64,000 bases of DNA from Terriglobia bacterium (lineage in GTDB: Bacteria > Acidobacteriota > Terriglobia > 20CM-2-55-15). The notes beneath the pieces are model-generated. The model saw only the letters and a list, made by a program, of their open reading frames with translations. It ran no database searches and was not told the DNA's origin. The position numbers were made by a program, and so were the translations under genes. Location: assembly GCA_963664115.2 (NCBI GenBank), contig CAXWPJ010000009.1, forward strand, positions 768,001 to 832,000, in the 5' to 3' direction. Shown in pieces: positions 46,722 to 64,000 of the stretch (positions are counted from its first letter, which is position 1; each line of letters begins with the position of its first letter).

Positions 46722-47648
46722 TTAGGAACGCGCTTTCTTAGAACTGTTCCGAAGCACTCGCTCGGTCCACGAATCCCGATCTGGGGTGAACTGAGCCGCA
46801 GCCGACCGTAAATACGGGCGAAATTGAGAGATCCAGTACCGGGCAAACCCGGCCTTGCGGATGCGTGTGAGGGTTTCCCGATAATGCGTCAGCAGGGGCC
46901 CCGCCAAAACGTAGCCCGTCCGTTGTCCGGCAACCTTGGCGGCCTGCGACAACCAGTACACCTTTTCCGGCAGGGTCCCTACTGTCGAAAGTGCCATCAC
47001 AGTAGACATCTCGAATACTGAACGGCCCTGACGTTGCGCCTCGCCGGTGATCTGGTCCCAGGTTCCCCTAACCAAAGCTAAAGCCGGAATTCTCTTCGGG
47101 GGTAGCTTGGCCAGCTCCTCCCTAAATGCGTCCCACTCATTTCGGAGATCCGCCACATCCAACGGTGGAGCATTGATCGTTTTTGCCGCCCGACCAGCGC
47201 TCTGCTCCAGAGCGTCAAGCATTTGATCGACCGTTCCAACTTCGGCATCATTCTCCATCAGTCCCTCTTCCTTCAAAGCGCCTGTGATGTCAGCCAGCAG
47301 GTGACGCCCGGCACCACTCACATCGGCCAGTGCCGCCAGCACCCAGACCGGTGAGGCACGAAAGACCAAAATGCCGATCATTTCCAGACCACCACCAGCG
47401 GTTCTTCGCAGCAGCAAGTCGTTATTCAACTCTTCCTCAGATGGGAATACCCCTTCCACTTGTCCGACCTGTTCGATCAGAAACCGGAGAGTCAACTCCA
47501 CCACGTTGACGTAAAGGCGGCTCTTGCGAACTCCGTCCGGTAAGGCTGAACGTCCGATCTCGTGTAACAGTCCACCCGCAAGCGCCGACGCAGAACACAG
47601 CACCCGCTCCGGAAGGGACAACAGATAGCGGGTAAGTCGCGACTTCAT
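46722..47648 (-). CDS. Hypothetical protein (helical)
   Basis: 308-aa ORF filling the gap between neighbours with natural composition; no motif recognised. Confidence 0.75.
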   Translation of the reverse strand: MKSRLTRYLLSLPERVLCSASALAGGLLHEIGRSALPDGVRKSRLYVNVVELTLRFLIEQVGQVEGVFPSEEELNNDLLLRRTAGGGLEMIGILVFRASPVWVLAALADVSGAGRHLLADITGALKEEGLMENDAEVGTVDQMLDALEQSAGRAAKTINAPPLDVADLRNEWDAFREELAKLPPKRIPALALVRGTWDQITGEAQRQGRSVFEMSTVMALSTVGTLPEKVYWLSQAAKVAGQRTGYVLAGPLLTHYRETLTRIRKAGFARYWISQFRPYLRSAAAQFTPDRDSWTERVLRNSSKKARS

Positions 47649-47748
47649 ATTCAGAGAATCTTAGTCGAATAGAACCTGGAACCGTCAGGAAAAGATCCTT
47701 CATCGGGAAGCTCAAAATTCTGCACGCCCCGAGCTATAATGATCCACT

Positions 47749-48909
47749 GTGAATGTACTTGCGCTGACCCTCGTGCTCCTCGCGCCGATCCTCCAGAACT
47801 CTTCCGAGGAAGCAACACTGGCCGGGGTTCGTCCCATCCTCCAAAGCTTGCGTGATCAGGCCACCGACTACTCGCCCACACGCGGCGCGACGAGTGGCTT
47901 GACTGAGGTAAAACATCAACTTCGGGACTGGATTGAGTCGAGGCTGGCTTTGCTGCCCGAAGACGGCGACGTCCGCGCCTTCGAGCGAGCGGTCAACGAC
48001 GCGCTCGATGACGCCGAACTTTTCTGCGTCGACGTCGCTGTCGAGTGCACGGACAACATCCTGGGCTATGTGGACATCGTTCGGGCGCACCGCGAACGCG
48101 ACTTCCTGGTCTTCGTGACGGCGATGGGCGTCTGGTGCGGCTACGACGAATCGGCCTACGTATACGCATGGGGAGGCCAGCGATGGGGGCGCATCTGGGA
48201 GAACGAGCAGAACACCTACACGGACGAAGGCTACCTGCCGCAAACGATACACGATGTGAAGATTTCGTCTCCCGATGCGAATGGAGACCGGCTGCTGATG
48301 ACTCTCGGTTCGCAGGCGGCCTGCGCCGGCTCGTTCAAAGACCTCTACGTTCGCGTCTGGGGGGTGGACGCCGATCACCAGACTGCCCCCGTCCTGGACT
48401 GGGCGGAATATGCCAGCGACGGGTATCCGCCGATACGAGGACAGGTCCGCCCCAACGATGTCCTCGTCCAATTCACCGTGGGCGGGATCGTTGCCGGCGA
48501 TAGCCACTCGGCCGTGCGCCACTTCGAAGTGCTTGATGGAACGGCCACACAGATCGATCCCATTGCCGTCAGGCCGCGGGATTTCGTGATCGAGTGGATC
48601 GCCGCCCCATGGCAGGAGAGCCAAACGCGCTCCGAATCGCCGTCTCTGGAAGAATGGCACACCCAACTGCACCGTGTGGATGGAGTCGGAGACTTCCCGG
48701 ATCCGACCCTGCGGTGCACGGCCGGCTCCGGTTTATGGCAGGTGGGGACAAACTTCTACGACGGACCGAAGAGATACTACCGCGTTCTCTGGCAGGGGCC
48801 TTACAGCTTCACCATGGTCGGCGTCAGCGAAACACCCTATCCGGACTGCACAATCGCAGATCCGCAGGGCGATGCCTATCCACAACTGTTCCCACCCGAT
48901 CCGGACTGA
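47749..48909 (+). CDS. Secreted hypothetical protein, beta- and Cys-rich
   Basis: Hydrophobic N-terminus, strong GC3 codon bias in this frame, six Cys. Confidence 0.8.
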   Translation: MNVLALTLVLLAPILQNSSEEATLAGVRPILQSLRDQATDYSPTRGATSGLTEVKHQLRDWIESRLALLPEDGDVRAFERAVNDALDDAELFCVDVAVECTDNILGYVDIVRAHRERDFLVFVTAMGVWCGYDESAYVYAWGGQRWGRIWENEQNTYTDEGYLPQTIHDVKISSPDANGDRLLMTLGSQAACAGSFKDLYVRVWGVDADHQTAPVLDWAEYASDGYPPIRGQVRPNDVLVQFTVGGIVAGDSHSAVRHFEVLDGTATQIDPIAVRPRDFVIEWIAAPWQESQTRSESPSLEEWHTQLHRVDGVGDFPDPTLRCTAGSGLWQVGTNFYDGPKRYYRVLWQGPYSFTMVGVSETPYPDCTIADPQGDAYPQLFPPDPD

Positions 48910-48969
48910 GTCAGGCGAGGCCTCCCAGACCATCATGGTATGGGCGATGCAATACCACCGATAGGCGTT

Positions 48970-50267
48970 CTAGGGCGCCAGGCTGCGGAGAGCTTCGACC
49001 GCCGCCTCGGCGACATCGGTGTTCGGATCCTGGGTCAGAGGCTGGATGTAAGGACGGGATTCGGGCGATCCAATTCGTCCGACAACGCCCAGGAGTTTGG
49101 CGCGAATATCAGCGATTCGGGATGAGCCCACCGGAAAACGCCATTGTCTTGTCCTGCGATTCGGAGGTGGGGATAGAGTTCCTCGAGTCTGCCTTCGTAT
49201 CGACCCAGTTCGAACAGATAGACTTCCGCAATTTGATCCCTGCGGCTATCGAGCGCATCCACGAGTTCCTGAAGATACATTGAGTTCCCGAATGCCACCA
49301 ACGCGAAAGCCTGGGCCAAACGAACCTCGGCATCACCCTCTTCAGCGAAACGCTCGACGAACGAAGATGCGTCGTAATCCAGACGGGCCAATCCCCGGGC
49401 TGAGAGTTCGCGATAGGAGTCTTCGTCACTGTCGAGCAGGGATTCGAACAGTTCGACGGCCGACGGTTCCCGCAACAAACCGATCGACTCGAGTGCCAGA
49501 TTACGCGTGTCACCGTCGTCACCAGTCCGAAACAGGTTTGATAGTGCAGGATACGCGGCCCGGTACCCCGTGCGACCCACCGATAAGATGGCCTCGCGAG
49601 CAACGCGTTCATCCTCATCACGGATAAATCGTGTCAGTGCCGGACCCGAATCCTGACTTCCAATGTCACCCATGGTCCGTATCATTGCGATCTGGACTTC
49701 CCAGTCTTCCCGATGCCGCGGTCCATCCAGCTCTTCGATCAACGCAGGCAGTTGATCTGCGGCGTTGAGGGAGCCGAGAGCATTCGCTGCAGCGACCCGC
49801 ACTTCCCAATCGAAGTCATTCTGGAGAGCCTCTACCAATACCTCTTTTGCGCTTTCGTCTACGAATACGTTCGGGCCCACGTTCAGTTGCTCGTCTTCAC
49901 TGAAGACGCGCGTCACATCGGTTATGAAGTTCCAGAACCCTTGCTCATCAGCCACAGGAATGTAGAGTCGGAGCAGAGAATCGATGGCCTGTAGTCGGAC
50001 GTCTAACTGAAAATCTGCGAGTAGCGCCTCACTGAGGGTTGGAATTGCAGATTGGTCTCGAATTCTTCCGAGTGCTCGAACAATGGATGTCCGAATCTCA
50101 CTACTCTGTTCGTTCTTGAAAGCGTCGCCCAAGAGAGGCACGGCATCCCGGTTTCCAAGCACAGCCATCGATTCGACGGCATCGCTCCTTTCTCTTGGGC
50201 TGGCACTGTCCAGGGCCGGCGTCTGCGCCAGCGCCAGGACCAGAATGAGTTGCAAGAACTGTGACAT
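48970..50267 (-). pseudogene. Secreted HEAT-repeat protein, frameshifted near its C-terminus by a 38-bp insertion
   Basis: Repeated L...D..VR..A..ALG HEAT units. Removing 49123..49160 restores ...LYPHLRSRIADIRAKLLGVVGRIGSPESRPYIQPLTQDPNTDVAEAAVEALRSLAP* (419 aa). As written the ORF ends at 49035 with a non-HEAT tail. Confidence 0.85.
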
Positions 50268-50446
50268 TTTGGATTTCCCTCTGGGTTAGCCCCTTACAAT
50301 CAATGCGCTACTTAGGAAATGCCGGGCATGTGCTTCCGACAGATTCTTCCAAACAAATACTTCGACTGTAGGGGCGTCGAAAGGTCGCGACTGCCCCGTT
50401 CATTTCCCCAAAAGTCTAGGCACAGGGTGACCCCATTCAGGTCCAT

Positions 50447-51394
50447 TCAGCGGGCGCCAAAGTGGCAATCACAGGATTCGAATTCGTCTCCATCTGGACC
50501 GCACTTCTCAATCTGAATGGTTGTGTGATCGATCTGATACCGCTTGTGCACAATCTCTCTCACACGGCTGAGAACGTCGGATCGGGCATGACTGTTCTCG
50601 CCCACCACAACATGACAGCTCATGGCCACCACTCCCGACGTCAGCGTCCACACGTGCAGATCGTGGACAGACAGAACTTCTTGCGCGCCAAGGAGATTGT
50701 CTTTCAATGACGTTAGGTTGATATGGGCGGGCGCTCCTTCGAGAAGGATGTCGACGGCGTCACAAATGAGCAGCCAAGAACTGGACAGAATTAGAACCGC
50801 AACAATCGCACTGATGATGGCGTCGGCCGAGTTCCAGTCAAAAAAGATGATAGCCAGACTCGCGAGGATTGCCCCGATCGAGCCCAGGGCATCACTCAAC
50901 ACATGAATAAAGGCGCCGCGGACATTAAGGCTTTGGGACTGACTTCCGAACAGAACGTAAGCGCTGACAAGGTTCGCCAACAGGCCTCCCGACGCGACCA
51001 ACAGCATGAGGTTGCCACGGACCGGTTGAGGCTCCATCAGCCTCTGGTAGGCCTCGTAGAAAATGAACATGGAAATCAGGACAAGAAAAACGCCGTTCAG
51101 GAGCGCGGCAAGGATTTCGACTCGGTAAAACCCGTAAGTCTTCCCCTCGGGCGCGGGTCGGCTTGCAAACCAGAACGCGAACAAACTCAGGCCCAGCGCC
51201 CCGACATCGGTGAACATGTGGCCGGCGTCGGCCAACAACGCAAGGGAATTGCTATAGATACCGCCGATTAGCTCGATCACCAGGACGGTCGCAGTGATGA
51301 CCAGGGCAATCCGCAAACTTCCGCCAGCGTCAGAGACACGCCCTTCGGGGGATTCTTGGTGGTCGTGGGTGTGGGGTCCCGCGTGGGAAGACAT
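50447..51394 (-). CDS. czcD: Cation diffusion facilitator (CzcD/ZitB-type Zn/Co/Cd exporter)
   Basis: His-rich N-terminus, SLALLADAGHMFTD, TYGFYRVEILAA, HVLSDALGS, VHDLHVW, HTTIQIE. Confidence 0.93.
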   Translation of the reverse strand: MSSHAGPHTHDHQESPEGRVSDAGGSLRIALVITATVLVIELIGGIYSNSLALLADAGHMFTDVGALGLSLFAFWFASRPAPEGKTYGFYRVEILAALLNGVFLVLISMFIFYEAYQRLMEPQPVRGNLMLLVASGGLLANLVSAYVLFGSQSQSLNVRGAFIHVLSDALGSIGAILASLAIIFFDWNSADAIISAIVAVLILSSSWLLICDAVDILLEGAPAHINLTSLKDNLLGAQEVLSVHDLHVWTLTSGVVAMSCHVVVGENSHARSDVLSRVREIVHKRYQIDHTTIQIEKCGPDGDEFESCDCHFGAR

Positions 51395-51533
51395 CGCAGA
51401 CACAATTATACTACGCGGACCCCGGCAGGGGTCAGTGCGATAACAGTTGTTTAAACAGACTGTTATAATGACCCGTTTTTTCGACACAGCCTACATCCGC
51501 GCTTCATTAGAGACGCGACATCAAGGGGAATTT

Positions 51534-60581: not shown

Positions 60582-62672
60582 ATGTCGACAACCGTAGCCG
60601 ATACCGATCAACTCATTGGTTTTCTAAAAAACGTCAGCCTTTTCGAGGATTTGCCCGAAGAAAGCCTGGTAAAACTCGGATCCTGCCTGAAAATCACGGA
60701 GTTTCCCCCGTCTGAAAGCGTCATGCGCGAAGGGGCGCCGGGCGTCTCGATGTATATCATCAAAGACGGCATGGTGGAGGTCCGGAAAAAGGACCCGGTT
60801 ACAGGCATCGATTTCCTCGTGGCGCAGTTGGGCCCGGGAGCGGCCGTTGGCGAAATGTCCCTGTTGACGGGTAAACCGCGCTCCGCGAGCGTAAACACGG
60901 TCGAACCGACCTCGGTCTACACGCTGACCCGCACAGATTTCCGCAATCTTCTCACGCAATACCCGGAAATCTCCCTGGGCCTGGCCAGAATTCTGGCAGA
61001 GCGACTCGAAGAAGCCAACAAGCAGGTCGGCGTCGAGTTCGTCAGCCTGACGAAAAACATCAACTTCGACCCCCGGGTCGTGAGCCTGATTCCTCAGAAC
61101 ATTCTCACCCAACATAAAGTGGTGCCGATCGCATACACGAACAACGCCCTCACCCTGGCGATGGTGAATCCGTCCAACCTTGTCGCCTTCGACGATGTCC
61201 GGCGCTACGTCAAGGGAGTCATCATCGAACCCCGCGTATGTACCGACGAGGAATTCAAAAAGTTCATGGCCCAGGAATATCCGAGGCTGATGAATGTCGA
61301 CGAGGAAATCGACAAGGATAAACAGGCAGAGAAACTCAAGAGAGACCTCGAAAGAAAGAAGAAGCAGCATAAGGAAGAAGCGGCAGCTGCGGTTTCCAGC
61401 ACGCAGCAAGAAAACCTGGAAGACCTTGAAGCCGAAATTCTGAGCGGCATCGAGGTCCAGGAGGACGAAGAAGAGAAGCCGTCGGAAACGGATCTCCAGA
61501 CCGCGTCGGGAGACGCGCCTATCGTCCGGCTGGCCAACAACATCCTGGCACTGGCGATCAAGAAGGGGGCCAGTGACATCCATCTCGAGCCTCAGGAAGA
61601 GGGCGTGCGGGTGCGCCTCCGAATAGACGGTGTCCTTCGAGTGGAAAATGTCCTATCGCGCAAGATCATGCTCCCGCTGATCTCACGCTTCAAGATCCTG
61701 TCACGCCTGGATATTTCCGAAAGGCGCCTTCCGCAGGACGGGCGTATTTCGATCAAGTTCGAGGGTCGCGGCATCGACTTCCGTGTATCCACGGTGCCCG
61801 CAAAATTCGGCGAGAAGGTCGTCATGCGGATTCTCGACAAGAGCGCGGCGCTCTTGCCGCTGGACAAGATCATCAACCATCAGGAAACGATGGAAAAGGT
61901 CCGGTGGATGATCAATCAGCCTTACGGCATCATCTACGTCACGGGACCGACCGGATCAGGAAAAACAACTTCGCTATACAGCTCGCTGGGCGAGATCAAC
62001 TCCCCGGGCACCAATATCTCGACGGCTGAGGATCCCATCGAGTATGACCTGGCGGGGGTCAACCAGATCCAGACCCACAAGGATATCGGCCTCGATTTTG
62101 CCCGGGTGCTTCGAGCCTTTCTTCGACAGGACCCCGATGTCATCCTCGTCGGCGAGACCCGCGATCGGGAAACAGCCGGGATCGCCGTTGAAGCTGCCCT
62201 TACAGGCCACCTTGTGTTCACAACTTTGCACACGAACGACGCCCCGGGGGCGTTCACCCGTCTTGAAGAAATGGGCGTCGAACCCTTCCTGATGTCGAGT
62301 TCGACCATCGGCATCCTCGCACAACGCCTGGCACGCCGTATCTGCACGAAATGCAAAGAAGAAGTCAAGCCGGACGAAGCGACCGCCAAGTTCTTCGGTT
62401 ACGACATGAACGACCTGCCGACGTTCTATAAGGGCAAAGGTTGCGACAACTGCGGTGGCAACGGGTACAAGGGGCGTGTCGGTGTCTACGAAGTCCTTCT
62501 CATGAACGACGAACTCCGGCGCTTGGTTTCAGGCGGAGCCAAGTCCGATGAAGTCCGGGATTGCGCCGTGAAGCACGGCATGATGACGCTTCAAAATTAT
62601 GCGGAGTTCCTCTTGAAAGAGGGACTGACGACGATGGAAGCGGTTCTTGGTGTCATTTCGATCGCAGAGTAA
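60582..62672 (+). CDS. Cyclic-nucleotide-binding domain fused to a PilB/GspE-family assembly ATPase
   Basis: N-terminal cNMP domain (REGAPGVSMYIIKDG, VGEMSLLTGKPRSASV); ASDIHLEP, ERRLPQDGRI, Walker A GPTGSGKTT, LRQDPDVILVGETRD, TGHLVFTTLHTN, CTKC/CDNC zinc motif. Confidence 0.93.
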   Translation: MSTTVADTDQLIGFLKNVSLFEDLPEESLVKLGSCLKITEFPPSESVMREGAPGVSMYIIKDGMVEVRKKDPVTGIDFLVAQLGPGAAVGEMSLLTGKPRSASVNTVEPTSVYTLTRTDFRNLLTQYPEISLGLARILAERLEEANKQVGVEFVSLTKNINFDPRVVSLIPQNILTQHKVVPIAYTNNALTLAMVNPSNLVAFDDVRRYVKGVIIEPRVCTDEEFKKFMAQEYPRLMNVDEEIDKDKQAEKLKRDLERKKKQHKEEAAAAVSSTQQENLEDLEAEILSGIEVQEDEEEKPSETDLQTASGDAPIVRLANNILALAIKKGASDIHLEPQEEGVRVRLRIDGVLRVENVLSRKIMLPLISRFKILSRLDISERRLPQDGRISIKFEGRGIDFRVSTVPAKFGEKVVMRILDKSAALLPLDKIINHQETMEKVRWMINQPYGIIYVTGPTGSGKTTSLYSSLGEINSPGTNISTAEDPIEYDLAGVNQIQTHKDIGLDFARVLRAFLRQDPDVILVGETRDRETAGIAVEAALTGHLVFTTLHTNDAPGAFTRLEEMGVEPFLMSSSTIGILAQRLARRICTKCKEEVKPDEATAKFFGYDMNDLPTFYKGKGCDNCGGNGYKGRVGVYEVLLMNDELRRLVSGGAKSDEVRDCAVKHGMMTLQNYAEFLLKEGLTTMEAVLGVISIAE

Positions 62673-62865: not shown

Positions 62866-62971
62866 GGACAGCTTTCGCAGTGAAGACGCGATAGCCGAGG
62901 CGTCTGAGTAATGAAATGATCGGATGGGACGGCAGCAAATGTTGATGTCGAGTACTTCTAACTCAATCCCC

Positions 62972-64000
62972 TAGTGGTCCCCGTTAAACAGACTGTAACT
63001 TATCAAGATTTCGCCGGCCGCGCTGGACTTTAGCAAGGATGTCGGAAGCCGTTGCAGTCCAGATGAAGGGTTTCGGGTCTTCATTGTGACGAGCGAGGTA
63101 GTCCTCCACGGCCTGGATCAACTCGGGGACCGAGCGGAAAACGCCACGCCGGAGTCGTTGCTCGGACAGATCCCGGAAAAAGCGCTCGACCATGTTGAGC
63201 CACGACGCACTGGTTGGCGTGAAGTGCACATGAAAACGCTTGTTACGCTTGAGCCAGTTGACGACTTTCTGATGTTTGTGAGTCGCATAGTTGTCGCAAA
63301 TAATGTGGATCTCCTTATCTTTCGGCATGGCGCGTTTGATCTGATTCAGAAACCGGATCCATTCCTGATGGCGATGCTTTGGCATGCAGGTTCCGATGAC
63401 CGAACCGTCCAGGATGTTGAGCGCGGCGAAAAGCGTGGTTGTCCCGTTACGTTTGTAATCGTGGGTCATGGTGCCACACCGCCCCTTCTTCAGAGGTAAC
63501 CCGGGTTGCGTGCGGTCCAGGGCCTGCATCTGGCTCTTCTCATCGCAGGACAAGACAATGGCGTTTTCCGGTGGGCTCAGATACAGACCGACCACATCCT
63601 CCAGCTTTTCGGCGAATCGTTTGTCGTTGGATAGTTTGAAGGTTCGTGACAGATGAGGCTTCAGTCCATGGACCCGCCAGATTTTCCCGACCGTGGACTC
63701 GCTCACGCCAACGGCCTTCGCCATCGAGGCCCGACTCCAGTGCGTCGCGTTCGGGGGCTTCTCTTCCAGTGTCTTCTTGACGATCCGGGCTCGCTTCCGG
63801 CGACTGATCGTGGGAATCCGTCCGCTTCGCGGCGCATCCTTTTCGATCCCAGCCAAGCCCTGTTCCACAAAACGATTGCGCCAGCGGCCCGCTTTCTGGC
63901 GCGTGATCTCCAAGCGGGCGGCGATCTCATAATTGTTCCGACCTTCAGCGGCCAGTAATACAATTCGGGATCGTTCCGCCAACCGGACCGATGTACTCCG
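62972..64000 (-). mobile_element. IS630-family insertion sequence (right part; truncated by the window edge)
   Basis: Transposase stop lies about 10 nt from a (C)TAGTG end typical of TA-targeting IS630 elements; the other end is outside the window. Confidence 0.88.
62984..64000 (-). CDS. IS630-family transposase (5' end outside the window)
   Basis: HTH region (DAPRSGR, THWS), DDE residues in [25 protein letters not shown]. Confidence 0.95.

Follow-up and report, generated by a model that had tools for sequence, protein, structure and literature searches.

We focused on a gene for a HEAT-repeat protein (Pfam HEAT_2, E = 1.9e-41) whose reading frame is interrupted by a short, exact piece of an IS630 transposase gene, and asked how this piece came to lie there. 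Both the gene and a full copy of the element are located in the window, by which we mean the whole stretch of 64,000 nt analyzed here. The original prediction had described a perfect 38-bp reverse-complement match between the two loci, internal to the transposase gene at one locus and frameshifting the HEAT-repeat gene at the other, and all of this was confirmed: positions 49123-49160 are the exact reverse complement of positions 63542-63579, the match cannot be extended on either side, and ∼5e-13 matches of this kind are expected by chance in a window of this size. On the 1157-bp element, the fragment covers bases 549-586, within the transposase sequence (Table 1).

Table 1 Features of the HEAT-repeat gene and of the IS630 copy, in positions of the window
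Feature	Position	Strand	Remark
HEAT-repeat protein gene	48970..50267	-	419 aa in the insert-free allele; 410-aa frameshifted ORF (49035-50267) in the assembly
CTAG with the HEAT stop codon; nearest IS630 target tetramer	48970..48973	.	putative site of a full IS630 copy in part of the source population
9-bp repeat, left copy	49112..49120	+	assembly only
2-bp second extra piece	49115..49116	+	not in the four runs; accounts for the apparent direct repeat of 9 bp
38 bp identical to IS630 bases 549-586	49123..49160	+ (transposase sense on +)	of this, 36 bp (49124-49159) are net extra sequence; a likely artifact of consensus
9-bp repeat, right copy	49156..49164	+	5 IS-matching bases and 4 host bases
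Full IS630 copy, 1157 bp	62971..64000	-	CTAG at both ends; extends 127 bp past the window end
IS630 stretch matching the fragment	63542..63579	-	same stretch in 27 other copies

The transposase contains a DDE_3 domain (Pfam, E = 1.5e-21), HTH_32, and other domains, and full copies of the element align from base 1 to base 1157, with imperfect terminal inverted repeats and a CTAG at both ends. In these features, the donor is like the members of the IS630/Tc1/mariner family, which uses TA as its target (PMC2170065). In the assembly (G000; 4.9 Mb in 12 contigs), the element is present in 26 full copies, and 21 of these are identical. Since the 38-mer occurs in 28 IS copies, its 29th occurrence being the site in the HEAT-repeat gene, the copy at 63542, to which the original prediction had matched the fragment, is not a special donor. 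An IS256-family element (∼47 to 49 copies) and a 1.86-kb element (∼71 to 72 copies) are also abundant, and the copies of these and of IS630 are mostly near-identical. The genome has undergone a large recent IS expansion. Related IS630 elements are multicopy in three of the four genomes of the genus. One IS630 copy in G000 (C2:208043-208815) ends at base 773 and is followed within ∼60 bp by a sequence that, by eye, is tRNA-like. Just upstream of the IS630 copy in the window, a 696-aa ORF (60582-62672) presumably encodes a relative of the pilus/secretion ATPases with an N-terminal cyclic-nucleotide-binding domain.

The site was compared with public sequencing runs by means of their Logan contigs. 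No library is recorded for these runs, which may come from clones other than the source and whose contigs may drop rare variants. Twelve runs share 0.78 or more of the words in positions 47500-51500, and none exceeds 0.98, where an insert-free strain is expected to share 0.983; runs X13 to X23, which share at most 0.43 of the words, were left out of the site comparison. All four runs compared at the site (X1, X3, X4, and X9, from four studies) span it without the fragment. In each of them, a single contig joins position 49114 to position 49160 with seven letters in between and is, net, 38 bp shorter than the assembly. An insert-free allele was the finding that the original prediction had named as pointing to an artifact, and all four runs show it. 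What had been taken for one clean 38-bp insert is therefore resolved into 36 bp (49124-49159) plus a separate 2 bp (49115-49116). X1 and X3 show zero other differences over 2001 bp, and the further substitutions at the site amount to one in X4 and two in X9. An exact 26-bp host pattern gave 0 matches among JGI metagenome contigs.

The allele seen in the runs, with its stop codon at 48970, also agrees with the relatives. The gene is intact in all 11 orthologous loci compared, which are the best-scoring ones from 30 relatives searched, and the junction residues of the runs' allele are the same as those in the two closest of these 11 orthologues. Excision of 49123-49160, which was predicted to restore a proper final HEAT repeat, does restore the frame but leaves a wrong junction peptide that matches neither the runs nor the orthologues. 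The 44-bp excision between the repeats likewise restores the frame and disagrees with both. The HEAT-repeat gene is likely intact in the organism.

The 9-mer reported at both junctions (49112-49120 and 49156-49164) is present in the assembly and had been read as microhomology. It is not found in the insert-free allele, however. A near-repeat of 4 bp is native to the host, the start of the IS piece extends it, and the 2 extra bases complete it. Homology between the IS flanks and the host is limited to a single base per junction. Thus, the repeat does not reflect preexisting microhomology. Nor is the fragment a transposition footprint, as the original prediction had rightly concluded. It differs from an IS630/Tc1/mariner transposition product in having neither an IS end nor a TA duplication and in not lying at a CTAG, the tetramer that IS630 reportedly prefers; the nearest one is 153 bp away.

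A scan of the genome for other IS-derived inserts, which the original prediction had called for, was carried out by painting G000 with the exact 18-mers of five multicopy elements. This yielded further interior pieces of IS630 at C5:309292 (31 bp), C12:36510 (27 bp), and C11:53557 (29 bp) and pieces of the IS256-family element (Transposase_mut) at C2:762792, C7:83787, C9:892177, and C9:404196, with lengths across the genome ranging from ∼20 to 249 bp. The piece at C9:892177 sits inside an IS630 copy, and the longest one (C9:404196-404444, 249 bp) has a duplicated flank, lies at the 3′ end of a gene for a TPR protein, and is not present in the relative G002. At the six other fragments in the genome, the junction repeats are only 3 to 5 bp long. 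For the three IS630 fragments in non-IS sequence, the nearest CTAG is 153, 117, and 44 bp away, and a random site lies within 160 bp of a CTAG with a frequency of 0.153. At C11:53302-53585, two pieces of IS630, one from its left end and one from its interior, are collinear, with ∼4 IS bases per host base; they are located at, and within, an IS256 copy with a 33-bp duplication, and removal of the left-end piece restores a CTAG, a reconstruction made after the fact. The C11 piece starts at the same IS base (773) as that at which the truncated copy at C2:208043-208815 is cut off. Three of the fragments (C5:309292-309322, C2:762792-762822, and C7:83787-83822) have end positions that coincide modulo 500 (at 322), and two of them also share length and start, while four others do not fit. 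This coincidence was noticed after the fact and may be due to chance or may be a trace of a window grid.

A second fragment could be compared with independent data. At C7:83787-83872, a 36-bp IS256-family piece and a 25-bp duplication break a gene for a family-2 glycosyltransferase. Neither the piece nor the duplication is found in X2, X8, or X5, which come from three studies, and relative to these runs the assembly also lacks host bases at the site, one in one place and two in another; X11 has no interpretable joint. Given its absence from three runs, the broken glycosyltransferase gene is likely a false pseudogene. No IS256 end was found near the C7 piece in the runs compared. As expected of a consensus artifact, the fragment in the HEAT-repeat gene is thus absent from independent data in four of four runs and the C7 fragment in three of four, the fourth being uninformative. 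Apart from these short pieces, the genome contains IS copies that appear moth-eaten. When aligned, two IS256 copies (C2:91080-91630 and C4:185145-185656) consist of exact pieces with many small deletions and few substitutions, a pattern that seems unlike natural decay, and more such IS copies are located at C3:7812, C5:39778, C5:43362, and C11:137509.

We are highly confident that the fragment in the HEAT-repeat gene is an artifact of the assembly, and we consider it probable that it arose as a consensus (polishing) error from source cells that partly carried a full IS630 copy at CTAG 48970; the verdict of an artifact is firmer than the mechanism. Because this CTAG holds the stop codon of the HEAT-repeat gene, an IS inserted at this point would not damage the protein and could be maintained in a fraction of the population. 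Reads with the 1.15-kb IS would be aligned by edit distance to an IS-free backbone, and with no cost for opening a gap, host bases beside the CTAG could be matched singly into the IS, at a rate of ∼1 host base per 4 IS bases. If the reads were then cut into 500-bp windows before consensus, the partial-order consensus could retain a short exact IS piece 100 to 250 bp from the target, accompanied by small side errors, which here would be the 2 extra bases. The CTAG at 153 bp is within the ∼250 bp allowed for such an artifact. Racon, according to the available part of its description, uses edit-distance alignment only to cut reads into windows, whose partial-order consensuses are then spliced (10.1101/068122). 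Similarly, the accessible part of the metaMDBG paper has its authors naming a racon-like step with 500-bp windows as a source of errors (PMC13087279). The genome analyzed here may have been polished by a Racon-type step. If the mechanism holds, such fragments also mark sites at which an IS is carried by only some members of the population.

This type of error could be reproduced in silico, using our own reimplementation of a Racon-like polisher, which has approximate tie-break rules and may be more error-prone than the real tools. Uniform inputs were rebuilt correctly in 4/4 runs. With IS630 placed at CTAG 48970 in 10 to 40% of the reads, exact IS fragments appeared in 65 of 322 simulated mixed runs, compared with 0/20 controls without the IS. 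At 2% read error, 34 of 177 runs produced exact fragments of 18 to 149 bp, 18 produced moth-eaten ones, 73 had host-only errors, and 52 were clean; at 0.3% error, exact fragments were found in 31 of 145 runs. The observed fragment has a length of 38 bp and lies at +153 (from IS base 549); the simulated fragments nearest to this geometry were one of 39 bp (+126, from IS base 475) and one of 22 bp (+148, from IS base 598). The relation between distance and IS position was loose at 2% error, with ratios from 3.8 to 44 that occur on both sides (Spearman P = 0.2), and tighter at 0.3%; the observed ratios of 3.2 to 4.0 are at the low edge of the simulated 2%-error range. A strict one-in-four rule was rejected, since under greedy matching host base 149 falls on IS base 636 and not within 549-586, and was kept as a range only. 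Junction repeats were also discarded as a signature of polishing, given that they were not enriched among the simulated fragments (P = 0.67); a repeat of at least 9 bp was found in 1 of 17 simulated single fragments and is expected in 0.1% of cases under random insertion.

An artifact could also have been produced by another route, with a chimeric or amplification-switched read serving as the backbone, or with the assembler threading a path through the high-copy IS in its repeat graph, and with polishing then failing to remove the piece. This is rather unlikely. It accounts for a fragment that is missing in all four runs and whose donors are always very high-copy elements, and indels with low or no read support are reported to be common in long-read metagenome assemblies in the accessible part of a recent study (10.1101/2025.04.22.649783). 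In addition, none of the four runs shows an IS end at CTAG 48970, where their contigs are unbroken, although contigs can drop rare variants. This route, however, predicts neither a CTAG near each IS630 fragment nor the collinear C11 pieces and the moth-eaten copies, and a piece from a single read should normally be outvoted. The original prediction had listed a chimera from amplification or assembly among its options; the assembly part of this option stands, while an amplification chimera appears to resemble the observed pattern less than a consensus error at a partly IS-occupied site does.

A real event private to the strain is very unlikely. During break repair, a polymerase or a reverse transcriptase would have copied IS DNA or RNA and slipped back, leaving 36 bp plus 2 bases and removing the last HEAT repeat. 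A complex insert with a local duplication does resemble template switching, slipping back could generate the 9-bp repeat that is so rare under random insertion, and the compared runs need not represent the source clone. The genome also has five matches to the reverse transcriptase model RVT_1 (C4:17248, C4:19121, C5:38210, C5:326582, and C11:21579), three of which have an identical score and frame length. Against this stand X1 and X3, otherwise identical over 2 kb and yet free of the fragment, and the intact gene in 11/11 orthologues. The C7 fragment is also missing elsewhere, beside lost host bases, and no Ku was found in the 96.96% complete genome. Microhomology between the donor flanks and the empty target is limited to one base per junction; the moth-eaten copies would be left unexplained, and the event would have had to recur at several sites. 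The broader form of this idea, in which template switching, independent of Ku and Cas1 and perhaps involving a reverse transcriptase, places short interior pieces of high-copy IS elements into genes of the strain at no fewer than seven sites and so generates private knockouts, is also highly improbable. Off-target integration of a spacer-sized IS fragment by Cas1-Cas2, another option originally listed, has only the length of 36 to 38 bp in its favor and can practically be dismissed, considering that the 96.96% complete genome gave no Cas1 match (the control was positive in 7/14) and no CRISPR-like array in a scan by exact 23-mer repeats, that there is no repeat-length duplication, that the fragments vary widely in length, and that the one in the HEAT-repeat gene is missing from other runs.

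For the biology of this organism, a consensus error would have little consequence, since the HEAT-repeat gene is most likely intact. The locus rather serves as a warning about method: in IS-rich genomes assembled from long reads, exact interior IS pieces of 20 to 70 bp, moth-eaten IS copies, and short flank duplications can be consensus errors that look like templated insertion or the capture of a spacer and make intact genes appear as pseudogenes. Among titles and the beginnings of abstracts, we found no paper on IS fragments displaced by polishing or on such capture in bacteria, which is a weak negative. Microhomology-mediated templated insertion, a form of template-switch repair, leaves a short exact copy of distant DNA and a small local repeat. 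The fragment shares both of these features but differs in having one-base homology, a repeat that is not in the empty allele, and no counterpart in independent data. Its closest match in the polishing process is the Racon type, as reimplemented edit-distance windowing with spliced window consensuses yields such fragments. Long-read metagenome assemblies have been described as containing indels without read support, errors in haplotyping, and false duplications, and the fragment is like these errors, as far as they are covered in the accessible part of that study, in combining extra sequence and local duplications at places where subpopulations differ and in breaking reading frames (10.1101/2025.04.22.649783). 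Short interior IS pieces displaced from their target are not described in that part and rest on the simulation presented here. The fragment can be placed among the indels lacking read support that are known from assemblies of this kind.
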